From a virus, in IMG/VR virus record IMGVR_UViG_3300022555_000024, positions 32,001-96,000 of that record: DNA of 64,000 nucleotides, one strand, 5' to 3'. Below are positions 1,315 through 34,924 of this stretch, in pieces; within the stretch, counting starts at the first letter, position 1; each line of letters starts with the position of its first letter. The notes below the pieces were generated by a model. It did not search any database and was not told the DNA's origin. It saw nothing but the letters and a program-made list of their open reading frames with translations. A program made the position numbers and the translations under genes.

Positions 1315-1644
1315 ATGAAAATTGTAAATAGAAAAACATTCCTTGAATTACCTAATAATATATTATTTTGCGAATTTGATCCAAATATTTTTGGAGATTT
1401 TTGTATAAAAACAAGAACATTAGAAAATGATTTTTGTTACATTTCACTAATGGACTTTAATGATGACGGTTCTAGTAAATATGGCTGTTATGATATTTTC
1501 GATGCTTCTTTGGAAAAAGGTGTTATAGTACCTTTAGATTTGGATATAGAAAATAGAGATGGATGCTTTGATGACAATCAATTGTTTGCTGTGTTTGATG
1601 CAAATGATATAAATTCATTAATTAATAAATTAAAAACTTTATAA
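1315..1644 (+). CDS. hypothetical phage protein
   Basis: 109-aa ORF in operon context; no motif recognised. Confidence 0.6.
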   Translation: MKIVNRKTFLELPNNILFCEFDPNIFGDFCIKTRTLENDFCYISLMDFNDDGSSKYGCYDIFDASLEKGVIVPLDLDIENRDGCFDDNQLFAVFDANDINSLINKLKTL

Positions 1645-1853
1645 AATGAGTACTAAACAAATAGTAACAGATGCATATCATAAGGTAATAACAAATGCCG
1701 ATGGATCTGTCGAGATAAAATTGATAATTTTGAAAAAAATTCTGTAGGATCTTGGTATACAGAATATGAATTACCTTTTTTAAAAATAAGTGCAGACTCA
1801 TTAGAAAGACTATCCAAACAAGGCCCAGAAGAACATAAAATAATAGAAATACT

Positions 1854-2456
1854 ATGAAACTTGTAGAACCATCATTTGAAATATTAAATATTTCTGGAGA
1901 TTTAAAAACTATAGAACAAGCAGCAAGAACCTGTTACAAGTCAGAAGATAAAATTACAGAAGGATCTTCAGAAAAGCTTGTTCAAAATTTAATAAGTAGA
2001 GGACATGGAGCAATGTTAGAATTTGTTTCAGTTTCTGTTAGAATAATTACAGATCGTGGAGTTTCGCATGAATTAGTAAGACATAGAATTGCATCGTTTG
2101 CGCAGGAAAGTACGCGTTACGTTAATTATAAAGGAGGCGTCGAATTTATAGAACCATTATCTATTATTGAAGGTCCTAAAGATTGCCAACAAACATTTAG
2201 AAAGACATGTAGTGATATAGAGAAAGCTTACGTATACTTTATAGCAAACGGACTAAAACCACAAGATGCTAGATCAATACTCCCATGCTGTACAAAAACT
2301 GAAATAGTTATTATGATGAATGTTCGGGAATGGAGACATTTCTTTAGTTTACGTTGTTCTAAGGCTGCACATCCAGAAATGCGGCGCATAACCATTCCTA
2401 TGCTAGCAGAATTTCAAAAAAGAATCCCAATAGTTTTTGAAAATCTTTCACTTTGA
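1854..2456 (+). CDS. thyX: flavin-dependent thymidylate synthase
   Basis: ThyX signature ELVRHRIASFAQESTRY, GHGAMLE, and LRCSKAAHPEMR. Confidence 0.95.
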   Translation: MKLVEPSFEILNISGDLKTIEQAARTCYKSEDKITEGSSEKLVQNLISRGHGAMLEFVSVSVRIITDRGVSHELVRHRIASFAQESTRYVNYKGGVEFIEPLSIIEGPKDCQQTFRKTCSDIEKAYVYFIANGLKPQDARSILPCCTKTEIVIMMNVREWRHFFSLRCSKAAHPEMRRITIPMLAEFQKRIPIVFENLSL

Positions 2457-3558: not shown

Positions 3559-4374
3559 ATGAAATTTAAAACTTTAGGTGATTGGTGTAAATGGTTGGAA
3601 CGTAATTTTTCAACAGAAGTGATGATTCCAACTCTTCCCGTTATAATCAGATTAGATGGTAATAATTTTCATTCTTGGACAAAGGGACTTAATAGACCAT
3701 TCGATGAAAATTTGAACAACTTAATGATTGATACTACTAAGTTTTTAGTAGAAGAAACTAATGCTGTTATTGGTTATACACAAAGCGATGAGATTACTCT
3801 TATTCTTTACAGTGATGATAAAAAGTCATCATTATATAACGACGGAAAAAAACAAAAAATTCTTTCTAAGCTAACTGCTAAATGTGTAAATCATTTCAAT
3901 TCTGTTAGGGAATCATATTTACCAGAACATAATAAAATAGCTACATTTGATTGTCGAATATACCAGACTCCGACTTTACATGATGCGTGTGTTCAATTAC
4001 TATGGATAGAAAACGATGCTACAAAAAATAGCATTTCCAGCGTTGCACAAAGTTTATTTTCACATAAAGAGTTGCAGGGTCTTAGTGGTTCTGAAATGCA
4101 GGATAAGATGATGTTAGAAAAATCTGTAAATTGGAATGATTTACCTACAAAAAATAAAAGAGGTTCATATGTAAAACGCGTCAAAGTTTTTAATGAATTC
4201 ACAGAAGATGAATTAAAAGATCTACCAGTAAAACATAGAGCACATAAAGATCCTCAGATGTCATTTGAACGTCATATAATCAAATCTATAGAATATCCTA
4301 TTTTTCATAAAATCACGAATAAAGTTGATGTTATTTTTAATAATGCAGAACCGATAGTAACAATTTGTAAATAA
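3559..4374 (+). CDS. Thg1-like tRNA(His) guanylyltransferase / 3'-5' RNA polymerase
   Basis: IRLDGNNFH, YTQSDEITL and FDCR motifs. Confidence 0.9.
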   Translation: MKFKTLGDWCKWLERNFSTEVMIPTLPVIIRLDGNNFHSWTKGLNRPFDENLNNLMIDTTKFLVEETNAVIGYTQSDEITLILYSDDKKSSLYNDGKKQKILSKLTAKCVNHFNSVRESYLPEHNKIATFDCRIYQTPTLHDACVQLLWIENDATKNSISSVAQSLFSHKELQGLSGSEMQDKMMLEKSVNWNDLPTKNKRGSYVKRVKVFNEFTEDELKDLPVKHRAHKDPQMSFERHIIKSIEYPIFHKITNKVDVIFNNAEPIVTICK

Positions 4375-4813
4375 AATTTCTTTTTTGTTGCATTTTGTTG
4401 TATATTATACTATAAGAAAAATAACTAAATATTATATATCATGATGATAGCAACCGTTATTCATAAAGCATTCGAAAAAGAAGAAAAAATTGTAGCAATG
4501 ATTGCTGTTGATGCTGAAGTAGTAACTGATGCGCTGGAATATGTTTATGAAAAGACTCAGAATCTTTATGACGCGTGGACAGAAAATGAAGACATTGCAG
4601 TTTTTAATTTAAAAGATTCACATCGTAGCACTTCTGTTGGAGATATTATAGTATTGGATGGTACTTCTTTTGAAGTGGAAGCAATGGGTTTTTCAATTAT
4701 AATGTAATATTCAAACAGAATTTGCTACAGTAGAAACTTTCAGAAAATAAAATTTCTTTTTTGTTGCATTTTGTTGTATATTATATTATAAGAAAAATAA
4801 CTAAATATTATAT
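4369..4813 (+). repeat. ~69-bp near-perfect direct repeat (4369-4437, 4745-4813), promoter/leader cassette
   Basis: aaataaaatttcttttttgttgcattttgttgtatattata(c/t)tataagaaaaataactaaatattatat occurs twice, each copy directly before an ATG (4441, 4815). Confidence 0.85.
4441..4707 (+). CDS. small phage protein with RSTSVGD motif (YodL-like)
   Basis: HRSTSVGDIIV; follows the repeated promoter. Confidence 0.6.
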   Translation: MMIATVIHKAFEKEEKIVAMIAVDAEVVTDALEYVYEKTQNLYDAWTENEDIAVFNLKDSHRSTSVGDIIVLDGTSFEVEAMGFSIIM

Positions 4814-13989: not shown

Positions 13990-15462
13990 ATGGGTTTCTT
14001 TTATACAAATTCACAATATCATAGAGGTTCTATTTATGTTCGTGGTTACGACACAAATGGAAAATATGTTTCTAAAAAAGTTGATTACCAGCCAACAATA
14101 TTTGTACCTACAAATAAAATAGAAGAATCAGATGGTTGGAGAACTATTTACGGAGATCCAGTAAAGCCCGTAAAAATGCGTTCTGTATTTGATATGAAAG
14201 AATATGTGAATGGATTAGATAATATTTGTGGACTTATAGATACTCGTGATCAAAAATATGCATTTATCAACGACATCATCCCTGGTGAAGTTGAACATAA
14301 AATGGATCTCATAAAGACTTTAATATTTGATATAGAAATAGAAACAGAAGGTGGTCATGAGGATATTAAAAAATTAGTTTGGGGAAATCCTCATCAGAAA
14401 ATAAATGCAATCTGTGTGTGGATAAATAATATAGAATATGTTTCTTGGGGACTCGGTAAGTTTGAAGCAGAAAGAGAAGATCATGAATATAGAGAATTTA
14501 CCGATGAATTAGAAATGTTGCATGACTTTTTTAAGTTTGTTCAACACGAAAAACCGGATATCATATCGGGATGGAATATTAATGGATTTGATATTCCATA
14601 TTTATTCAATAGAGTTTCATTTTTAGGTAAAAGAGAATATGCAAATTTAATGTCTCCTTGGAGACATGCACCAGAATTAGTAGGAAATGAAATTCAACAG
14701 TATACTATTCCAGGAATTGCTATTTTAGATTATATGGAGACATATAAGAAATTTAATATGACGCCTAGAGAATCATATTCTCTTAATAATATTTGTTATG
14801 AAGAACTTGGAGAGAAAAAACTAGACTATTCCGAATTCGATTCTCTCATGGACCTTTATAAAAAAGATTGGAAAACTTTTATTAGATACAATTTACGTGA
14901 TACAGAATTGGTTAAAAAACTAGATGATAAACTTAAATATTTTGATTTAGTAGTTACATATGCATACCTCGGAAAAGTAAATTACGAGGATGTATTTGGC
15001 ACTGTGAAATATTGGGATATTAAGATATATAATCATCTTTACAAAAAGAAAATAGCAATTCCACCAAAACCTAAAGATACAAGAAAAGAAGAATATCCAG
15101 GTGGTTTTGTAAAAGATCCAATCGTAGGTATGCATAAATGGGTATCAACGTTTGATTTGAATTCGCTATATCCATCTGTACTTATTCAGTGGAACATTTC
15201 TCCAGAAACTTTAATTAATGGAAAACATTCTCAGGTTACTGTAGATTCTATATTAAATAAAGAGTATGATAATTCAGAATTGCTTAAAGAAGATATTACT
15301 TTAGCAGCAAACGGGGTATATTTTTCTAAGAAAAAACAAGGGTTTATTCCAGAAATTCTAGAAGAACTTTACGAGACTAGAACAAAATATAAAAAGAAGA
15401 TGCTTGCAGGTGAAGCTAAATTGCAGAAAGTACTAGAAGAAATAAAAAGAAGAAAATTATAA
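13990..15462 (+). CDS. gp43A: family B DNA polymerase, N-terminal part (exonuclease and part of palm)
   Basis: FDIEIE, GWNINGFDIPY, YNLRD and FDLNSLYPS motifs; ends in the fingers region. Confidence 0.92.
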   Translation: MGFFYTNSQYHRGSIYVRGYDTNGKYVSKKVDYQPTIFVPTNKIEESDGWRTIYGDPVKPVKMRSVFDMKEYVNGLDNICGLIDTRDQKYAFINDIIPGEVEHKMDLIKTLIFDIEIETEGGHEDIKKLVWGNPHQKINAICVWINNIEYVSWGLGKFEAEREDHEYREFTDELEMLHDFFKFVQHEKPDIISGWNINGFDIPYLFNRVSFLGKREYANLMSPWRHAPELVGNEIQQYTIPGIAILDYMETYKKFNMTPRESYSLNNICYEELGEKKLDYSEFDSLMDLYKKDWKTFIRYNLRDTELVKKLDDKLKYFDLVVTYAYLGKVNYEDVFGTVKYWDIKIYNHLYKKKIAIPPKPKDTRKEEYPGGFVKDPIVGMHKWVSTFDLNSLYPSVLIQWNISPETLINGKHSQVTVDSILNKEYDNSELLKEDITLAANGVYFSKKKQGFIPEILEELYETRTKYKKKMLAGEAKLQKVLEEIKRRKL

Positions 15463-16559
15463 TGAAAGCAATAGAGGAGATGAGTGATGAGGAACTTATT
15501 TCATATAAAAAGAATTTGGAAGATGAAATAGGAGCTAATAATTCTACTCAAAATGCGTTAAAGGTAGCTTTGAATATGTTATACGGAGCCCTAGCTAATA
15601 GATATTTTAGGTATTTTGATGTAAGAATGGCTTCTGCAGTAACTTTAACAGGTCAGAGTGTTGTTAAATGGTGCGAAAAGTCTACCAATGAATATATGAA
15701 TAAGGTTTTAAAGACAGATAAAGACTATATTATTGCCATTGATACTGATTCAGTGTTTATAACAATGGAGGATATGATTAATAAATATTTTCCAGATGTA
15801 AATGATACTTCTACTGTTATATCAACAATGCAAAAAATAACAGAAAAGAAAATACTTCCTAATATGGCAAAATCATTTGCCGAGCTTTATGAATATTTGA
15901 ATTGTTATAAACCAAGAATGGTTATCAAATCAGAATCTTTGGCAAGTGCAGGTATATTTTTATGTAGAAAGAAATATGCTCTTATGGTTCATTCTAACGA
16001 AGGAATTGTTTATGCAAAACCAAAAATGAAAGTTAAAGGAATAGAGATAATAAGATCATCTACTCCCGAAATATGTAGATCTTCTCTTAAAGAAGCCGTT
16101 CAAATAATATTTGATTCTGGTGAAAAAGCTGTTCAAGAACATATTAAACAATTTAAGAATAAATTTATATCTAGCGGAGTTAATTCTACATCTTTTCCTA
16201 GAGGAATTAACGAACTTAAAAAATGGATAGATATAAATGGAAATCTTAACAAAGGATGCCCAATACATGTAAGAGGAGCTTTAAACTTCAATAGATATGT
16301 AGATAAATTAGGATTAGATAAGAAGTATGAGCATATTCATGAAGGCGATAAAATAAGATTTACATATCTTAAGATGCCTAATCCTTTAAATTCAAATGTA
16401 ATAGGGTTTGTTTCTTTAATGCCAAAAGAATTTGAGTTAGAGGAGTATATAGATTATGAATTGCAGTTTCAAAAGGCGTTTGTTGCACCTATTTCTAATA
16501 TTCTTGATGCAGTAGGATGGCAAGTAAAACCAAGTGTGAATTTGATAGATTTATTTTAA
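15462..16559 (+). CDS. gp43B: family B DNA polymerase, C-terminal part
   Basis: KVALNMLYG, IDTDS, KKYAL and KGIEIIRSSTP; TAATG overlap with gp43A. Confidence 0.92.
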   Translation: MKAIEEMSDEELISYKKNLEDEIGANNSTQNALKVALNMLYGALANRYFRYFDVRMASAVTLTGQSVVKWCEKSTNEYMNKVLKTDKDYIIAIDTDSVFITMEDMINKYFPDVNDTSTVISTMQKITEKKILPNMAKSFAELYEYLNCYKPRMVIKSESLASAGIFLCRKKYALMVHSNEGIVYAKPKMKVKGIEIIRSSTPEICRSSLKEAVQIIFDSGEKAVQEHIKQFKNKFISSGVNSTSFPRGINELKKWIDINGNLNKGCPIHVRGALNFNRYVDKLGLDKKYEHIHEGDKIRFTYLKMPNPLNSNVIGFVSLMPKEFELEEYIDYELQFQKAFVAPISNILDAVGWQVKPSVNLIDLF

Positions 16560-17044: not shown

Positions 17045-17410
17045 GGGGGTGACGGGATTTTGCCAGTCAAATAGTTAAATAGGAGTGCAGTTCGAGTTTC
17101 AGCATGGATGGACTCGTTAAAGAAGTCTATGTAAACAATAAATGCAGACACTTTCGAGTATCGCATGGCTGCTTGATCTTAACAGACAAACACCAAATTT
17201 GATAACTATATAGACGCTGAGTAGTTATCATCTAAAAATATTAGCAGTCGTCTTTGGTCCGAAGTTTCATCTCACCAATGTACTAAATTTGAAACTAGGT
17301 ATATCTCTTCCTGTTTGTGGGAAGTCAATTACCGAACAATAACACAAACATGACTGTAACACTTTTATTTTTCGTTTGGTTGTACGAGGGTTCGACTCCC
17401 TCCACTTCCA
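17045..17410 (+). ncRNA. ssrA: tmRNA (tag ADTFEYRMAA*)
   Basis: Acceptor GGGGGTG/CACTTCC-A with G3:U. T arm gaggg-ttcgact-ccctc. PK1 (cgagtt/gactcg; catggat/gtctatg). Resume context aaacaataaat-GCA, with tag ORF 17144-17176 ending AA-stop. Confidence 0.93.
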
Positions 17411-17416
17411 CAAAAT

Positions 17417-17561
17417 GGGGTAACACAGGTTAGAAATAATTAGCGAAAAACAGAACTGGTTATAACTCTACAATGATCGCAACATTGGAGGACTTGATGA
17501 ACAGAGAATGTTCTTTAGTAATACCGTGATTATTTATTGGGTTCGAACCCCATTTACTCCA
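17417..17561 (+). ncRNA. second, miniature tmRNA-like RNA (tRNA-like domain with ~85-nt insert)
   Basis: Acceptor GGGGTAA/TTACTCC-A (G3:U), stemless D-loop, P2-like helix aaataatta/tgattattt, and T arm tggg-ttcgaac-ccca. Confidence 0.75.
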
Positions 17562-17606
17562 CAAATTAATATATAACATCCTTCCTAATAATACAAATAC
17601 TACACA

Positions 17607-18722
17607 ATGGCAAAAGCAGAAGTAACAAAAAATAGCAAAGCATATGATATCCTAAAAAGAATGAAGAAGACGTCTTCTGTTGAAGAATCGTCAGTTTTTT
17701 CAGATTCTGATCTTTATATGATAAAGGAATCCATCCCAACTCCTATCCCAGTAATAAATTTAGCACTATCTGGTAAATTTTTTGAAGGAGGAATAACACG
17801 AGGTTTAACTGTATTTGCGGGACTGTCAAAAACCTTTAAGACTAACATTTGCCTTCTTTGTTTAAAGGCATATATGGACGCACATGAAGACGCGATAGGA
17901 ATGCTTTATGATTCAGAGTTCTCATTTACCCCAGAGTATTTAGCTTCATTTGGGATAGATATTAACAGAATATTCATAACACCTATAGTTGATATAGACA
18001 AACTTAAGAACGATATTATAAGTCAGGTAGATTCCATTAATAATGGAGAACACATCTTCATTTTAATAGATAGTATTGGAAATTTGGCATCTCTTAAAGA
18101 AGTATCTGATGCACAGGATGGAAAATCAACTCAAGATATGTCCCGCGCAAAAATGTTAAAAAGCTTTTTTAGAATGATAACGCCAAGAGTAAATCTGAAA
18201 AATATTCCACTTTTTGTTGTTAATCACATTTATATGACTCAGGAAATCTATAGCAAAGCAGTAATAAGTGGTGGAACAGGAGTACTCCTATCTGCAAATT
18301 CTGCACTCATCATGTCTCGTCGTAAGAATGATAATAAGGAAGAAGCTGGGTTCGATTTTATGATTAAAGCAGAGAAATCTAGATTTATAAAAGAAGGAAT
18401 TAAATTTCCAATTACAATACCTGAAGGTGGACAGATTAAGAAATATTCAGGCCTGTTTGATCTTGCATTAGAGACTGGCTTTTTAATGAAAGAAGGAATG
18501 ATGTATGCTGTCCCTGAATTACCAGAATTTAAAAAGGCATGGAAAAAAGATATAGAGGATTCTGAAGAATTCTGGACAAATATTTTTGAGAATACTACAT
18601 TTGTTAAAACTATAGAGGAAGGACTTAAAGTATCTGTAGATCAATCAGAATTATTTAAAATAGGTGCTAATGTTAGTGATATCTCCAATACAGTTGAAGA
18701 TTTCAAAGAGTTTGAAGAATAA
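17607..18722 (+). CDS. uvsX: RecA-like recombinase
   Basis: INLALSG, GLSKTFKT, YDSEF, IDSIGNLAS, DMSRAK and SGGTG. Confidence 0.93.
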   Translation: MAKAEVTKNSKAYDILKRMKKTSSVEESSVFSDSDLYMIKESIPTPIPVINLALSGKFFEGGITRGLTVFAGLSKTFKTNICLLCLKAYMDAHEDAIGMLYDSEFSFTPEYLASFGIDINRIFITPIVDIDKLKNDIISQVDSINNGEHIFILIDSIGNLASLKEVSDAQDGKSTQDMSRAKMLKSFFRMITPRVNLKNIPLFVVNHIYMTQEIYSKAVISGGTGVLLSANSALIMSRRKNDNKEEAGFDFMIKAEKSRFIKEGIKFPITIPEGGQIKKYSGLFDLALETGFLMKEGMMYAVPELPEFKKAWKKDIEDSEEFWTNIFENTTFVKTIEEGLKVSVDQSELFKIGANVSDISNTVEDFKEFEE

Positions 18723-18782
18723 AATGTGAAAATTGTTGTTATATATTATTTTATACTATCAAATAAAGGATTAAACAAAAAA

Positions 18783-20186
18783 ATGAATCGAATTGAAATA
18801 ATTATACTTTCCGGATTAATTACACAAGCAGAATTTTCTAGAAAAGTTCTCCCATTTATAAAAACAGAATATTTTGCTTCTTTGGAGGAACGTTATCTCT
18901 TTGACACAATACACAAATATATAACAACATATGGACAATTACCATCTATTTCAGCTTTATCGATAGAGATAGAAAATATCGTAGATATTAATGAAAGTGC
19001 TTTCAAATCGTTGAAAGAACTTCTTATTACAGTCGGGGATTCTACTGTAGATAATAAAGAGTTAGAATGGCTGTTAATAAATACAGAGAAATTTTGTCAG
19101 GATAAAGCACTCTATAATGCAATTATGGAGTCTATAGAGATCATGAATGCAGACAAAAATTCTACAACACACAAAAACCTTTCTAAAACTTCCATTCCAT
19201 CAGTTCTCACAAAGGCTCTAGCTGTTACTTTTGATAGTAAGGTAGGTCATGATTACATAGGTGATTCTGATTCTAGATATGAACATTATCATGAGAAAGA
19301 TGAGAAGATCCCATTTGACATAGAACTACTCAATACCATAACTAATGGTGGACTTCCAAAGAAAGCACTTTCTATTATTCTTGGTGGAACTGGAACTGGA
19401 AAGTCTATGGTAATGTGTCATTTTGCTGCTAACAATCTAATGGATGGTAATAACGTTCTCTATATAACTTTAGAAATGTCTGAGTTAGAGACAGCAAAAA
19501 GAATAGATGCAAATGTCTTTGACGTTGACATTAAAGATATATCTTCTATGTCTAAAACTGAATATCATAATCATGTAGATGATATAAAAAGAAAAACTAT
19601 GGGTAGACTTATTATTAAGGAATACCCAACTGCATCAGCACATGCCGGTCATTTTAGATTTCTCTTAGATGAATTGAAATTAAAAGAGAAGTTTATACCA
19701 GATATTATCTATATAGATTATATAAACATATGTCTAAGTATGAGAATGAAAATGGATGGAAATTCTTATTCATACATAAAATCTATAGCAGAAGAAATAA
19801 GAGGAATGGCAGTAGAATTCAATGTACCAATAGTTTCTGCTACTCAAACTAATAGAAATGCGCAAAATTCATCTGATGTAGATCTTACCAACGTTTCAGA
19901 ATCGACAGGCCTCTCTTCAACGTGTGATCTTATGCTCGCAATCATATCTTCAGAGCAATTGTCAGAACTTGGACAGCTTCAGTTCAAACAACTTAAAAAT
20001 AGATATAATGATGTTAATTCACCAACAAGGTTTTTAGTTGGTGTCAACAAATCAAAGATGAAACTTTTTGATTTAGAAACAAGTGTTCAAAACACTATCA
20101 TTCAATCAGGGCAAAGTCAAGTAACAAAACCAGCTGGAGGATTTTTTGGTACATCTAAAAACAAATTTTCTTCTATAAACGTCTAA
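18783..20186 (+). CDS. gp41: replicative DnaB-like helicase
   Basis: TEKFCQDKALYNAI, GGTGTGKS, YITLEMSE, IKEYPT and SATQTNR. Confidence 0.95.
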   Translation: MNRIEIIILSGLITQAEFSRKVLPFIKTEYFASLEERYLFDTIHKYITTYGQLPSISALSIEIENIVDINESAFKSLKELLITVGDSTVDNKELEWLLINTEKFCQDKALYNAIMESIEIMNADKNSTTHKNLSKTSIPSVLTKALAVTFDSKVGHDYIGDSDSRYEHYHEKDEKIPFDIELLNTITNGGLPKKALSIILGGTGTGKSMVMCHFAANNLMDGNNVLYITLEMSELETAKRIDANVFDVDIKDISSMSKTEYHNHVDDIKRKTMGRLIIKEYPTASAHAGHFRFLLDELKLKEKFIPDIIYIDYINICLSMRMKMDGNSYSYIKSIAEEIRGMAVEFNVPIVSATQTNRNAQNSSDVDLTNVSESTGLSSTCDLMLAIISSEQLSELGQLQFKQLKNRYNDVNSPTRFLVGVNKSKMKLFDLETSVQNTIIQSGQSQVTKPAGGFFGTSKNKFSSINV

Positions 20187-31313: not shown

Positions 31314-32271
31314 GTTATCAAAAAATGAAGTCAATGCAACAGCAAGAGGCGGTTCTGAGTTACAAGCAGAGTATTTACAAAAATATGTTGCAAAAGAACT
31401 TCTAGATCAATTTCAAATAATAATAACAAGAGTTAGAGAACTCGAAGACAAACCACGTTTACTCTGGTGTAAGGAAGTTGTTTCTGAACCAGAATCTCAG
31501 AGGTTAAAAGAACCTGCATTCCGTGATAATTTTAGATATATCATACACAATTCTGATTATCAGAGAAATCAGTTTAGAGATTATCTTGGAGTTCCATTTG
31601 AAAAATCACACGTCTTGAAAAATGCAATAGAACCATCGAATATAGACATTTCTAAAAAATTTTTTCCAGAGAAGGTAAAACTTATTTATTCTTCTACTCC
31701 ACAAAGGGGCCTTAATATTTTATATTCTGTTTTTGACGAGCTTTATAAGGATGACAAAAACATAGAACTAAATGTGTATTCTTCTTTTGATATCTATGGT
31801 CATCATGAAAGAAATAAACCATTTTTGCCACTGTTTGATCAATGTAAATCTCATCCAGGGATAAATTATTATGGTTCAGTTTCTCATGAAGAATTGAAAG
31901 ATGCTACAAAAGAAAATCACATTTTAGCATACCCTTCAATCTGGGAAGAAAGTAGTTGCACTACTATCATGGAAAACATGAGTGCAGGAAATCTTATAGT
32001 GACTAATAACTTAGGAGCATTGCCCGAAACCAGTGCAGGTTTCTCCTTAATGTATGATTATCAATCTAACCTTAATCTACACGCACAGAATTTCTATAAT
32101 ACGTTAAAAGAAGGTATTGACAGTATAAGGGGCAACGGGATAGGAAAAAAAATAAATGGAATGAGTATTACTAGCCTTTTAGAAGAACAAAAAAAATACG
32201 CAGACATTTTCTATAATTGGGAATTCAGAGGGCAACAATGGACAGAATTCTTAACTAAATTGTTAAAATGA
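31306..32271 (+). CDS. GT-B glycosyltransferase (GT1/GT4-like)
   Basis: GGSE, YSSTPQRGL, YPSIWEESSC...ENMSAG and GALPET. Confidence 0.85.
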   Translation: MNKLSKNEVNATARGGSELQAEYLQKYVAKELLDQFQIIITRVRELEDKPRLLWCKEVVSEPESQRLKEPAFRDNFRYIIHNSDYQRNQFRDYLGVPFEKSHVLKNAIEPSNIDISKKFFPEKVKLIYSSTPQRGLNILYSVFDELYKDDKNIELNVYSSFDIYGHHERNKPFLPLFDQCKSHPGINYYGSVSHEELKDATKENHILAYPSIWEESSCTTIMENMSAGNLIVTNNLGALPETSAGFSLMYDYQSNLNLHAQNFYNTLKEGIDSIRGNGIGKKINGMSITSLLEEQKKYADIFYNWEFRGQQWTEFLTKLLK

Positions 32272-34067: not shown

Positions 34068-34130
34068 TTTCTTGTGGCGTAATTGGTTAACGCTTTTGTA
34101 AATATGCAGGTTCGAATCCTGCCAAGAAAA
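34068..34130 (+). ncRNA. tRNA-like RNA lacking the anticodon arm
   Basis: Acceptor tttcttg/caagaaa, D arm gcgt-aattggtta-acgc, 12-nt unstructured linker, and T arm gcagg-ttcgaat-cctgc. Confidence 0.75.
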
Positions 34131-34239
34131 CAAAAATATTTTAAATGATATAATTGAAAAGGCATTTTTGCAAAGTCTTTATAATATATAGGCGCGAAAC
34201 ATACGCCTAGGTTTAAGTATTAAGTATAAAACTTCATAC

Positions 34240-34696: not shown

Positions 34697-34769
34697 GGCC
34701 TTATAGCTCAACTGGTTAGAGCAGTAGACTGTCGATCTACAGGTTTGGAGTTCGATTCTCCTAAGGTCG
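34697..34769 (+). tRNA. tRNA-Asp(GTC)
   Basis: ggcctta/taaggtc-G, D arm gctc/gagc, anticodon arm gtaga-ctGTCga-tctac. T stem only 4 bp; CCA not encoded. Confidence 0.8.
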
Positions 34770-34924
34770 CTAATAAATCCCTCCATCAAACATCTCAATT
34801 ATCGAGAGAGTTAATGTTATTCAAAATTTTATAATTTCAAGTTTATTCAAGTAATAAAATTATTTTTACTTTTAAAGAAAAATGGTTATATTATACTATA
34901 TGAATAACTAAACAATATTATATT

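Follow-up and report, generated by a model that had tools for sequence, protein, structure and literature searches.

A 145-nt tRNA-shaped gene six nucleotides behind a phage tmRNA: a possible relative of message-less mini-tmRNAs

Anatomy and genomic setting of the 145-nt RNA

The DNA analysed here is a stretch of 64,000 nt (hereafter the window) covering positions 32,001 to 96,000 of the IMG/VR virus record IMGVR_UViG_3300022555_000024. At 17417-17561 of its + strand we identified a 145-nt tRNA-shaped gene, located 6 nt after a full-length, one-piece transfer-messenger RNA (tmRNA) of phage type; features of both RNAs are given below as + strand positions of the window. The upstream tmRNA (17045-17410) was recognized by ARAGORN, which reads its tag as ADTFEYRMAA, and by the Rfam model RF00023 (104.8 bits), in agreement with a preliminary description of the locus that had placed a canonical phage tmRNA there. 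Its 3′ end reads ...CACTTCC-A(17410)-CAAAAT, such that CCA is not encoded, and the CAAAAT (17411-17416) constitutes the 6-nt spacer between its discriminator and G1 of the second RNA. For the latter, the same description had proposed a tRNA-like gene with alanine identity marks and the layout of the tRNA-like domain (TLD) of tmRNA, both of which can be read directly from the sequence.

The acceptor stem of the 145-nt RNA is formed by GGGGTAA (17417-17423) and TTACTCC, with the latter followed by the discriminator A17561 (17554-17561). All seven positions are paired, including a G3:U70 pair (G17419:T17558), and whilst pairs 5-7 differ from those of the tmRNA on both strands, complete pairing is nevertheless kept. 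A stemless D-loop analogue of the N4-GGUUAG type, CACAGGTTAG (17424-17433), leads into a P2-like helix whose 5′ strand AAATAATTA (17434-17442) pairs with TGATTATTT (17527-17535) over nine of nine positions, with a single U-G amongst them; two extra pairs beyond a 1-nt bulge appear in a constrained fold. A T arm with a canonical T loop, TTGGG-TTCGAAC-CCCAT (17537-17553), was located by T-arm scanning. The RNA thus contains the canonical T loop, the GG-bearing stemless D loop and the P2 helix that make up a tmRNA-type layout. Where CCA would be expected the gene is followed by CAA (17562-17564), a trailer common to the tmRNA and two other odd tRNA-like genes. Accordingly, both RNAs of the pair end in ...CC-A-CAA, as originally noted, with A17410 and A17561 each followed by CAA. 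The GC content of the 145-nt RNA (37 %) and of its insert (38 %) is similar to that of the tmRNA (39 %), with a value of 31 % for the window as a whole.

Within P2 lies an 84-nt insert (17443-17526), which we characterized by alignment to the tmRNA and by fold z-score. It folds into only two small hairpins (using ViennaRNA, which predicts no pseudoknots), both of which are kept in the constrained minimum free energy structure. Two inner hairpins had been proposed previously; the second (GAACA-GAGAA-TGTTC, 5 bp) stands at 17499-17513, whilst the first consists of a 5-bp core at 17471-17487 with an optional 3-bp extension (17467-17469 with 17489-17491). This core, CAATG-ATCGCAA-CATTG, resembles an anticodon arm with U33, the alanine anticodon CGC and A37. 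Amongst shuffled inserts, 0.32 % contain such an Ala-anticodon hairpin and 5.6 % an anticodon-like hairpin of any kind, both figures referring to a feature noticed post hoc; no CGC-type hairpin is present in the other mini RNAs compared. Aligned to the window tmRNA and to its orthologue described below, the insert scores 17, compared with 16.6 ± 2.3 for shuffled sequences, and its antisense pairing with the tmRNA or with the uvsX leader is likewise at shuffle level. As the insert has no detectable homology to tmRNA, the 145-nt RNA is unlikely to be a recent decayed duplicate of its neighbour, a possibility raised in the preliminary description that is further disfavoured by an acceptor that is divergent and still fully paired.

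The combination of features is also rare by chance. A strict descriptor, comprising a T arm, a 7/7 acceptor of the form GGG...TCC with G3:U70, a discriminator A and a P2 that spans 7 bp or more and abuts the T arm, had 17417-17561 as its sole match in the window, and matched no site in 150 random 64-kb sequences. A loose descriptor, requiring only a T arm and any 7/7 acceptor partner within 420 nt, gave 0.77 matches per random 64 kb, and is therefore not rare.

The source of the window is a 112-kb IMG/VR record with a CheckV completeness of 62 %, derived from an uncultured, T4-like virus. The two RNAs are embedded in a replication module of T4-like type, in which the tmRNA is placed between a split family-B DNA polymerase (13990-16559, +) and uvsX. 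The polymerase comprises two adjoining ORFs of 490 and 365 aa, with a stop/start overlap at 15462. Downstream of the 145-nt RNA are the genes for UvsX (17607-18722) and a DnaB-type helicase (18726-20186). The UvsX proteins of the nearest cultured phages have less than 48 % identity to that of the window. Scans for promoter and terminator consensus sequences found nothing between the tmRNA and uvsX.

Standard callers and the search for homologues

The preliminary description had named Infernal with RF00023 and ARAGORN as suitable means of recognizing the second RNA; it is called by neither. With default settings ARAGORN made no call at 17417-17561, its low-threshold and intron modes gave only mismatched, spurious solutions, and its tmRNA mode (-m) did not call the RNA down to ps50. 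Across the whole record, RF00023 matched the full tmRNA alone; for comparison, the TLD-only and reduced phage forms introduced below score 22-79 bits on this model.

A search for homologues in related phages, also suggested there, returned none. Megablast and blastn against the phage collection yielded no homologue of the 145-nt RNA, nor did its exact 3′-end pattern match in viral contigs. A single-sequence covariance model of the RNA (R1), run over 43 viral records, was similarly negative. A pattern extending from the anticodon loop to the T arm gave 119 matches, none with the stem and acceptor, and blastn-short against 2.7 Mb of loci matched T loops and nothing else. An identical UvsX occurs on 117 contigs, and relatives of 76-79 % identity exist (P0002-P0007); at 64 UvsX-linked IMG/VR loci ARAGORN found no tRNA or tmRNA upstream of uvsX. 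RF00023 produced a single match across 38 related records, an orthologue of the window tmRNA at 1612-1978 (+) of locus L002, with 91.2 bits, an identical tag (ADTFEYRMAA) and a UvsX of 72 % identity on the same locus. This orthologue was missed by ARAGORN and differs from the window copy by many compensatory changes. It encodes CCA, where the window tmRNA has CAA, and is followed by a short hairpin, a 305-aa ORF of no known family and then uvsX. A pattern for the tag-coding region matched only the L002 contig amongst viral contigs, and gave one chance match in metagenome contigs, inside a protein gene.

We also searched for the tandem architecture itself, using a T arm...TCCA sequence followed by GGGG-N7-GGTT. 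This returned no tandems, but instead permuted two-piece tmRNAs, with at least 120 such genes in viral contigs (including loci L121-L200) for the pattern with an intervening spacer. Permuted two-piece tmRNA genes are thus common in phages, mostly aquatic ones.

TLD-only RNAs and other stable RNAs of phages

A TLD-only ('CDS-less', i.e. without coding sequence) tmRNA has been described in mycobacteriophage DS6A (Hudson, Lau & Williams 2014, PMC4131195; PMC11915505), and a TLD-only molecule is reported to be a strong inhibitor of tmRNA, perhaps via SmpB titration (PMC4131195, citing Mao et al. 2009; PMC11915505). Given these RNAs, and the tandem TLD RNAs presented below, the earlier statement that no comparable system had been described was too strong. 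No other case of a full tmRNA directly followed by a TLD-type RNA was found in this analysis.

Using the D-loop type of the 145-nt RNA, we scanned viral loci with the pattern GGGG-N7-GGTTAG...T loop...TCCA. This retrieved 32 loci, compared with ∼0.14 expected by chance (an estimate from pattern specificity), which represent 20 distinct RNAs of 72-80 nt. Nineteen of these were aligned (alignment A4), the remaining one being left out for its mismatched acceptor. G3:U70 and A73 are present in all 19, and P2 starts right after GGUUAG. Across the three helices 89 % of alignment cells are paired, versus 67 % in shuffles, and the covariation score is 0.524, versus 0.132 for shuffles and 0.08-0.18 for slid controls. 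Three of five members tested with RF00023 scored 44-55 bits. In many members (L365-L395) an A-rich stretch precedes a small inner hairpin, CCC-N5-GGG, and several members are situated at the ends of tRNA arrays. The 145-nt RNA resembles this covarying family in having G3:U70, A73 and a D loop directly followed by P2, although it does so by construction, as the pattern was derived from it; with the family retrieved by its own motif, the D-loop match in particular is partly predetermined.

Larger and tandem forms were also found. When the gap in the pattern was lengthened, two expanded members of the family emerged, L396 (105 nt) and L397 (116 nt). In L397 the RNA at 4110-4225 is directly followed by a second TLD-like RNA of 84 nt (4229-4312), and its linker, like that of the 145-nt RNA, is without AC. 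A further tandem TLD pair occurs in L081, at 4449-4523 (75 nt) and 4534-4600 (67 nt); the two contigs carrying these head-to-tail pairs are unrelated. At L085 6591-6720, L067 8395-8528 (identical to L077) and L074 272-407 there are reduced, tmRNA-like RNAs, 130-136 nt long, whose TLDs are canonical. In these, ∼50-75 nt replace the pseudoknot ring, and none is called by ARAGORN, whilst L085 reaches 79 bits with RF00023. Possibly they represent strongly reduced tmRNAs that may or may not encode a short tag. The expanded and tandem forms indicate that inserts in P2 and head-to-tail TLD arrays are recurring themes, and the 145-nt RNA fits at the large end of the TLD-form size range.

A comparison with each of these classes reveals both likenesses and differences. 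Like the DS6A-type RNAs, the 145-nt RNA is phage-encoded, has an Ala-type acceptor, a stemless D loop, P2 and a T arm, and contains neither a pseudoknot ring nor a validated tag frame. Unlike those RNAs, which are ∼65-80 nt in length, it extends to 145 nt owing to its 84-nt insert, is positioned directly behind a full tmRNA and carries an Ala-anticodon-like hairpin. With canonical tmRNA (RF00023, e.g. 17045-17410) it has in common the TLD layout, G3:U70 and the A-CAA 3′ context; it differs in having no pseudoknots that we could see, no credible tag frame and no match with the covariance model or ARAGORN, and in being less than half as long. The expanded and tandem RNAs (L396, L397, L081 and L085/L067/L074) share with it P2 inserts or a head-to-tail arrangement, but none is homologous to it in sequence, and the partner is never a full-length tmRNA.

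Additional parallels concern 3′ ends and spacing. A discriminator A followed by CAA(A/T) is found at four non-canonical RNAs (17410-17414, 17561-17565 and 34130-34134 of the window, and L243 1617-1621), whereas the ordinary tRNA-Asp of the window (34697-34770) ends in G followed by CTAAT. tRNA precursors that lack CCA mature by a 5′ cut by RNase P, 3′ trimming and CCA addition; the recurring A|CAA suggests a common maturation route of this kind for the four RNAs, and is possibly a shared 3′-processing or CCA-addition signal. Two of these are further aberrant tRNA-like genes of the same phage. The first (34068-34130, +) is a 63-nt gene with 49.8 bits to RF00005 that was missed by ARAGORN, and has an acceptor, D arm and T arm with ∼12 nt in place of the anticodon arm. 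The second begins ∼24 nt beyond the window (G000:C1:96024-96140, corresponding to L243 1501-1617, +). It is 117 nt long and scores 33.1 bits with RF00005; the 63 nt that separate its D arm from its T arm include an anticodon-like hairpin (loop UUGCCCA), two more hairpins and a second T-loop-like motif.

A spacing of 6 nt is typical of co-processed RNA arrays. In phage T4 (AF158101 70908-71171), rnaD (119 nt), a 6-nt spacer and rnaC (species 1 RNA, 139 nt) are located at the end of the tRNA cluster; rnaC has a T arm, and CAAAC follows the gene. As such, rnaC is, like the 145-nt RNA, a stable RNA of ∼140 nt with a T arm and an acceptor-like end, 6 nt behind another stable RNA. Unlike it, rnaC is without a G3:U70 acceptor and without the TLD-type D loop and P2. 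Model R1 matched only the T-arm part of rnaC, at 19.9 bits, which is the level of ordinary T4 tRNAs.

Possible roles and alternative explanations

We tentatively read the 145-nt RNA, with a probability of about 0.45, as a real, lineage-specific RNA that is a divergent, expanded relative of the phage TLD-only mini-tmRNAs, and that would compete in or modulate trans-translation without carrying a message. Its exact 6-nt spacing, its tmRNA-like GC content and the recurring A|CAA argue for a real, processed RNA, whilst the evidence on its function is structural only. According to this reading, the RNA would share a transcript of the replication module with the upstream tmRNA, as promoter and terminator consensus sequences were not found between the tmRNA and uvsX. 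A cut by RNase P at G17417 would free it, leaving the tmRNA with a 6-nt trailer, and both A-CAA 3′ ends would then be trimmed and receive CCA from host enzymes. Because a G3:U70 pair in the acceptor helix suffices for AlaRS, the RNA would be expected to be charged with alanine. By virtue of its TLD layout, it would meet SmpB and EF-Tu and, alongside the tmRNA that the phage also encodes, take part in trans-translation as a competitor or modulator that has no message.

A number of observations weigh against this interpretation. First, the RNA has no homologue in the collections searched, hence no conservation or covariation of its own, and in L002, the closest relative with an orthologous tmRNA, the second RNA is absent behind the tmRNA. 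Second, it fits the relevant models poorly. A 171-nt slice (17405-17575) had no match at E ≤ 10 to the Rfam models for tmRNA, tRNA or mitochondrial tmRNA. The model of the GGUUAG family (R2) yielded only two half matches, of 12.5 bits (17417-17470) and 8.4 bits (17487-17561); other large-insert forms are also split by R2, but their 3′ parts reach 20-27 bits. Some clearly TLD-like phage RNAs (L067, L371, L378 and L396) are likewise unreported at the RF00023 thresholds used, and the silence of the callers is thus a real weakness that is not decisive. Third, there are structural shortcomings. The T stem has four pairs plus a U.U at its base, making the T arm, whose presence had been noted earlier, slightly weaker than was implied. 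Moreover, only one nucleotide, an A, links P2 to the T arm, where the family usually has a 2-3-nt NAC, P2 is not of the short, capped kind seen in forms of 65-80 nt total length, and the insert is not unusually stable (fold z = +0.28 versus shuffles). Finally, it is not obvious why a phage would place a tmRNA inhibitor beside a tmRNA of its own, and the 112-kb, 62 %-complete record has no PF01668 match for smpB, so that the tmRNA and the 145-nt RNA would both depend on SmpB from the host.

The most serious rival, although in our view unlikely, is that the RNA operates outside trans-translation, as a tRNA-like stable RNA of the T4 rnaC kind. It could then be a processing 'punctuation' element that attracts RNase P and 3′ processing to the 3′ end of the tmRNA and the 5′ end of the uvsX mRNA, or a decoy for tRNA-directed enzymes, with its alanine marks inherited and unused. 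The T4 precedent, with rnaD, a 6-nt spacer and an rnaC that has a T arm at the end of a tRNA cluster, is consistent with this, as are the A|CAA ends of the two aberrant tRNA-like genes, the missing promoter and terminator consensus before uvsX and the weak scores of the RNA with tmRNA-type models. So, too, is the comparison with L002, where the tmRNA has CCA and no RNA downstream, whilst the window has the RNA and a tmRNA that has lost CCA. However, G3:U70, A73, the stemless TLD D loop and P2 together exceed the specificity that a processing signal needs, and homology to T4 rnaC is limited to the T arm.

We consider it improbable that the gene is a functionless relic, i.e. the pseudogene of an old duplication of the tmRNA ends, or a tRNA-Ala(CGC) with acquired insertions. 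Its orphan status and absence from L002, the U.U in the T stem, the missing linker motif and the ordinary stability of the insert would all suit decay. Furthermore, the Ala-anticodon hairpin could be a remnant of tRNA-Ala, and the phage has other malformed tRNA-like genes. Decay is nevertheless difficult to reconcile with an acceptor (7/7) and a P2 (9/9) that are still perfect, even though the sequence is far from that of the tmRNA; nor does it sit well with the exact array spacing, the elevated GC content and a 3′ context common with the functional tmRNA.

A more elaborate proposal, which we regard as rather speculative, is a two-RNA trans-translation module. Here, the tmRNA would supply the tag, and an Ala-charged TLD-type RNA with a tRNA-Ala(CGC)-like arm nested in P2 would rescue ribosomes without tagging, or selectively adjust the activity of SmpB, AlaRS or a host enzyme directed at anticodons. 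If true, this would constitute a tRNA-Ala/tmRNA hybrid not described so far.

It is very doubtful that the RNA is instead a second miniature tmRNA, its insert translated from a resume codon at GCG 17443 or GGT 17458 into a non-degron tag ending in ...SLVIP. The frame seen in the preliminary description is real, and the open frame AKNRTGYNSTMIATLEDLMNRECSLVIP* runs for 28 codons (17443-17529) from the Ala codon GCG directly after P2 to a TGA; in addition, the reduced tmRNA-like RNAs of 130-136 nt, L085 with its 79 bits in particular, demonstrate that molecules of this size with canonical TLDs occur in viral contigs. The reading of this frame as a tag template finds no support here. A frame open across the whole insert is held by 31 % of shuffled inserts. 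In the 145-nt RNA the stop codon falls within the 3′ strand of P2, which also takes in part of the putative resume region, and the C-terminus, ...VIP, does not resemble a degron and is without the usual Ala-Ala. By eye, no pseudoknot was seen ahead of the resume codon (ViennaRNA, as stated, does not predict them); the tmRNA mode of ARAGORN is empty even at low thresholds.

Lastly, an intron-containing or interrupted tRNA-Ala(CGC), spliced to a normal tRNA, would account for the U33-CGC-A37 hairpin and for AACTGGTTA (17454-17462) just upstream of it, which matches the D loop of the window tRNA-Asp exactly, yet we reject it as scarcely credible: there is no D stem, RF00005 does not match, the solutions of the ARAGORN intron modes are poor, none of 77 in silico splice variants was called by ARAGORN, and two separate insertions would have to be removed, for which we know of no bacterial mechanism. 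The same results dispose of the intron-containing tRNA that had been raised as an alternative at the outset. The CGC hairpin is retained as an unexplained feature.

If the 145-nt RNA is indeed a relative of the TLD-only RNAs, then its kind, the phage TLD-type mini-tmRNA, would be one that is already known. New here would be its oversized form, its Ala-anticodon-like hairpin and its position directly behind a full tmRNA. Message-less tmRNA mimics have been described for one phage, DS6A, but appear to be widespread and unannotated, and standard tRNA and tmRNA callers miss RNAs of this class, as the present case illustrates. Such mimics are thought to interfere with host ribosome rescue and protein tagging; a phage with a full tmRNA and a mimic arranged head to tail would suggest that the mimic should not be viewed simply as inhibiting trans-translation. 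Such a pair would make a compact system for testing the two RNAs against each other. Moreover, together with the two aberrant tRNA-like genes, the 145-nt RNA recalls the still unexplained stable RNAs of T4, species 1 and 2.

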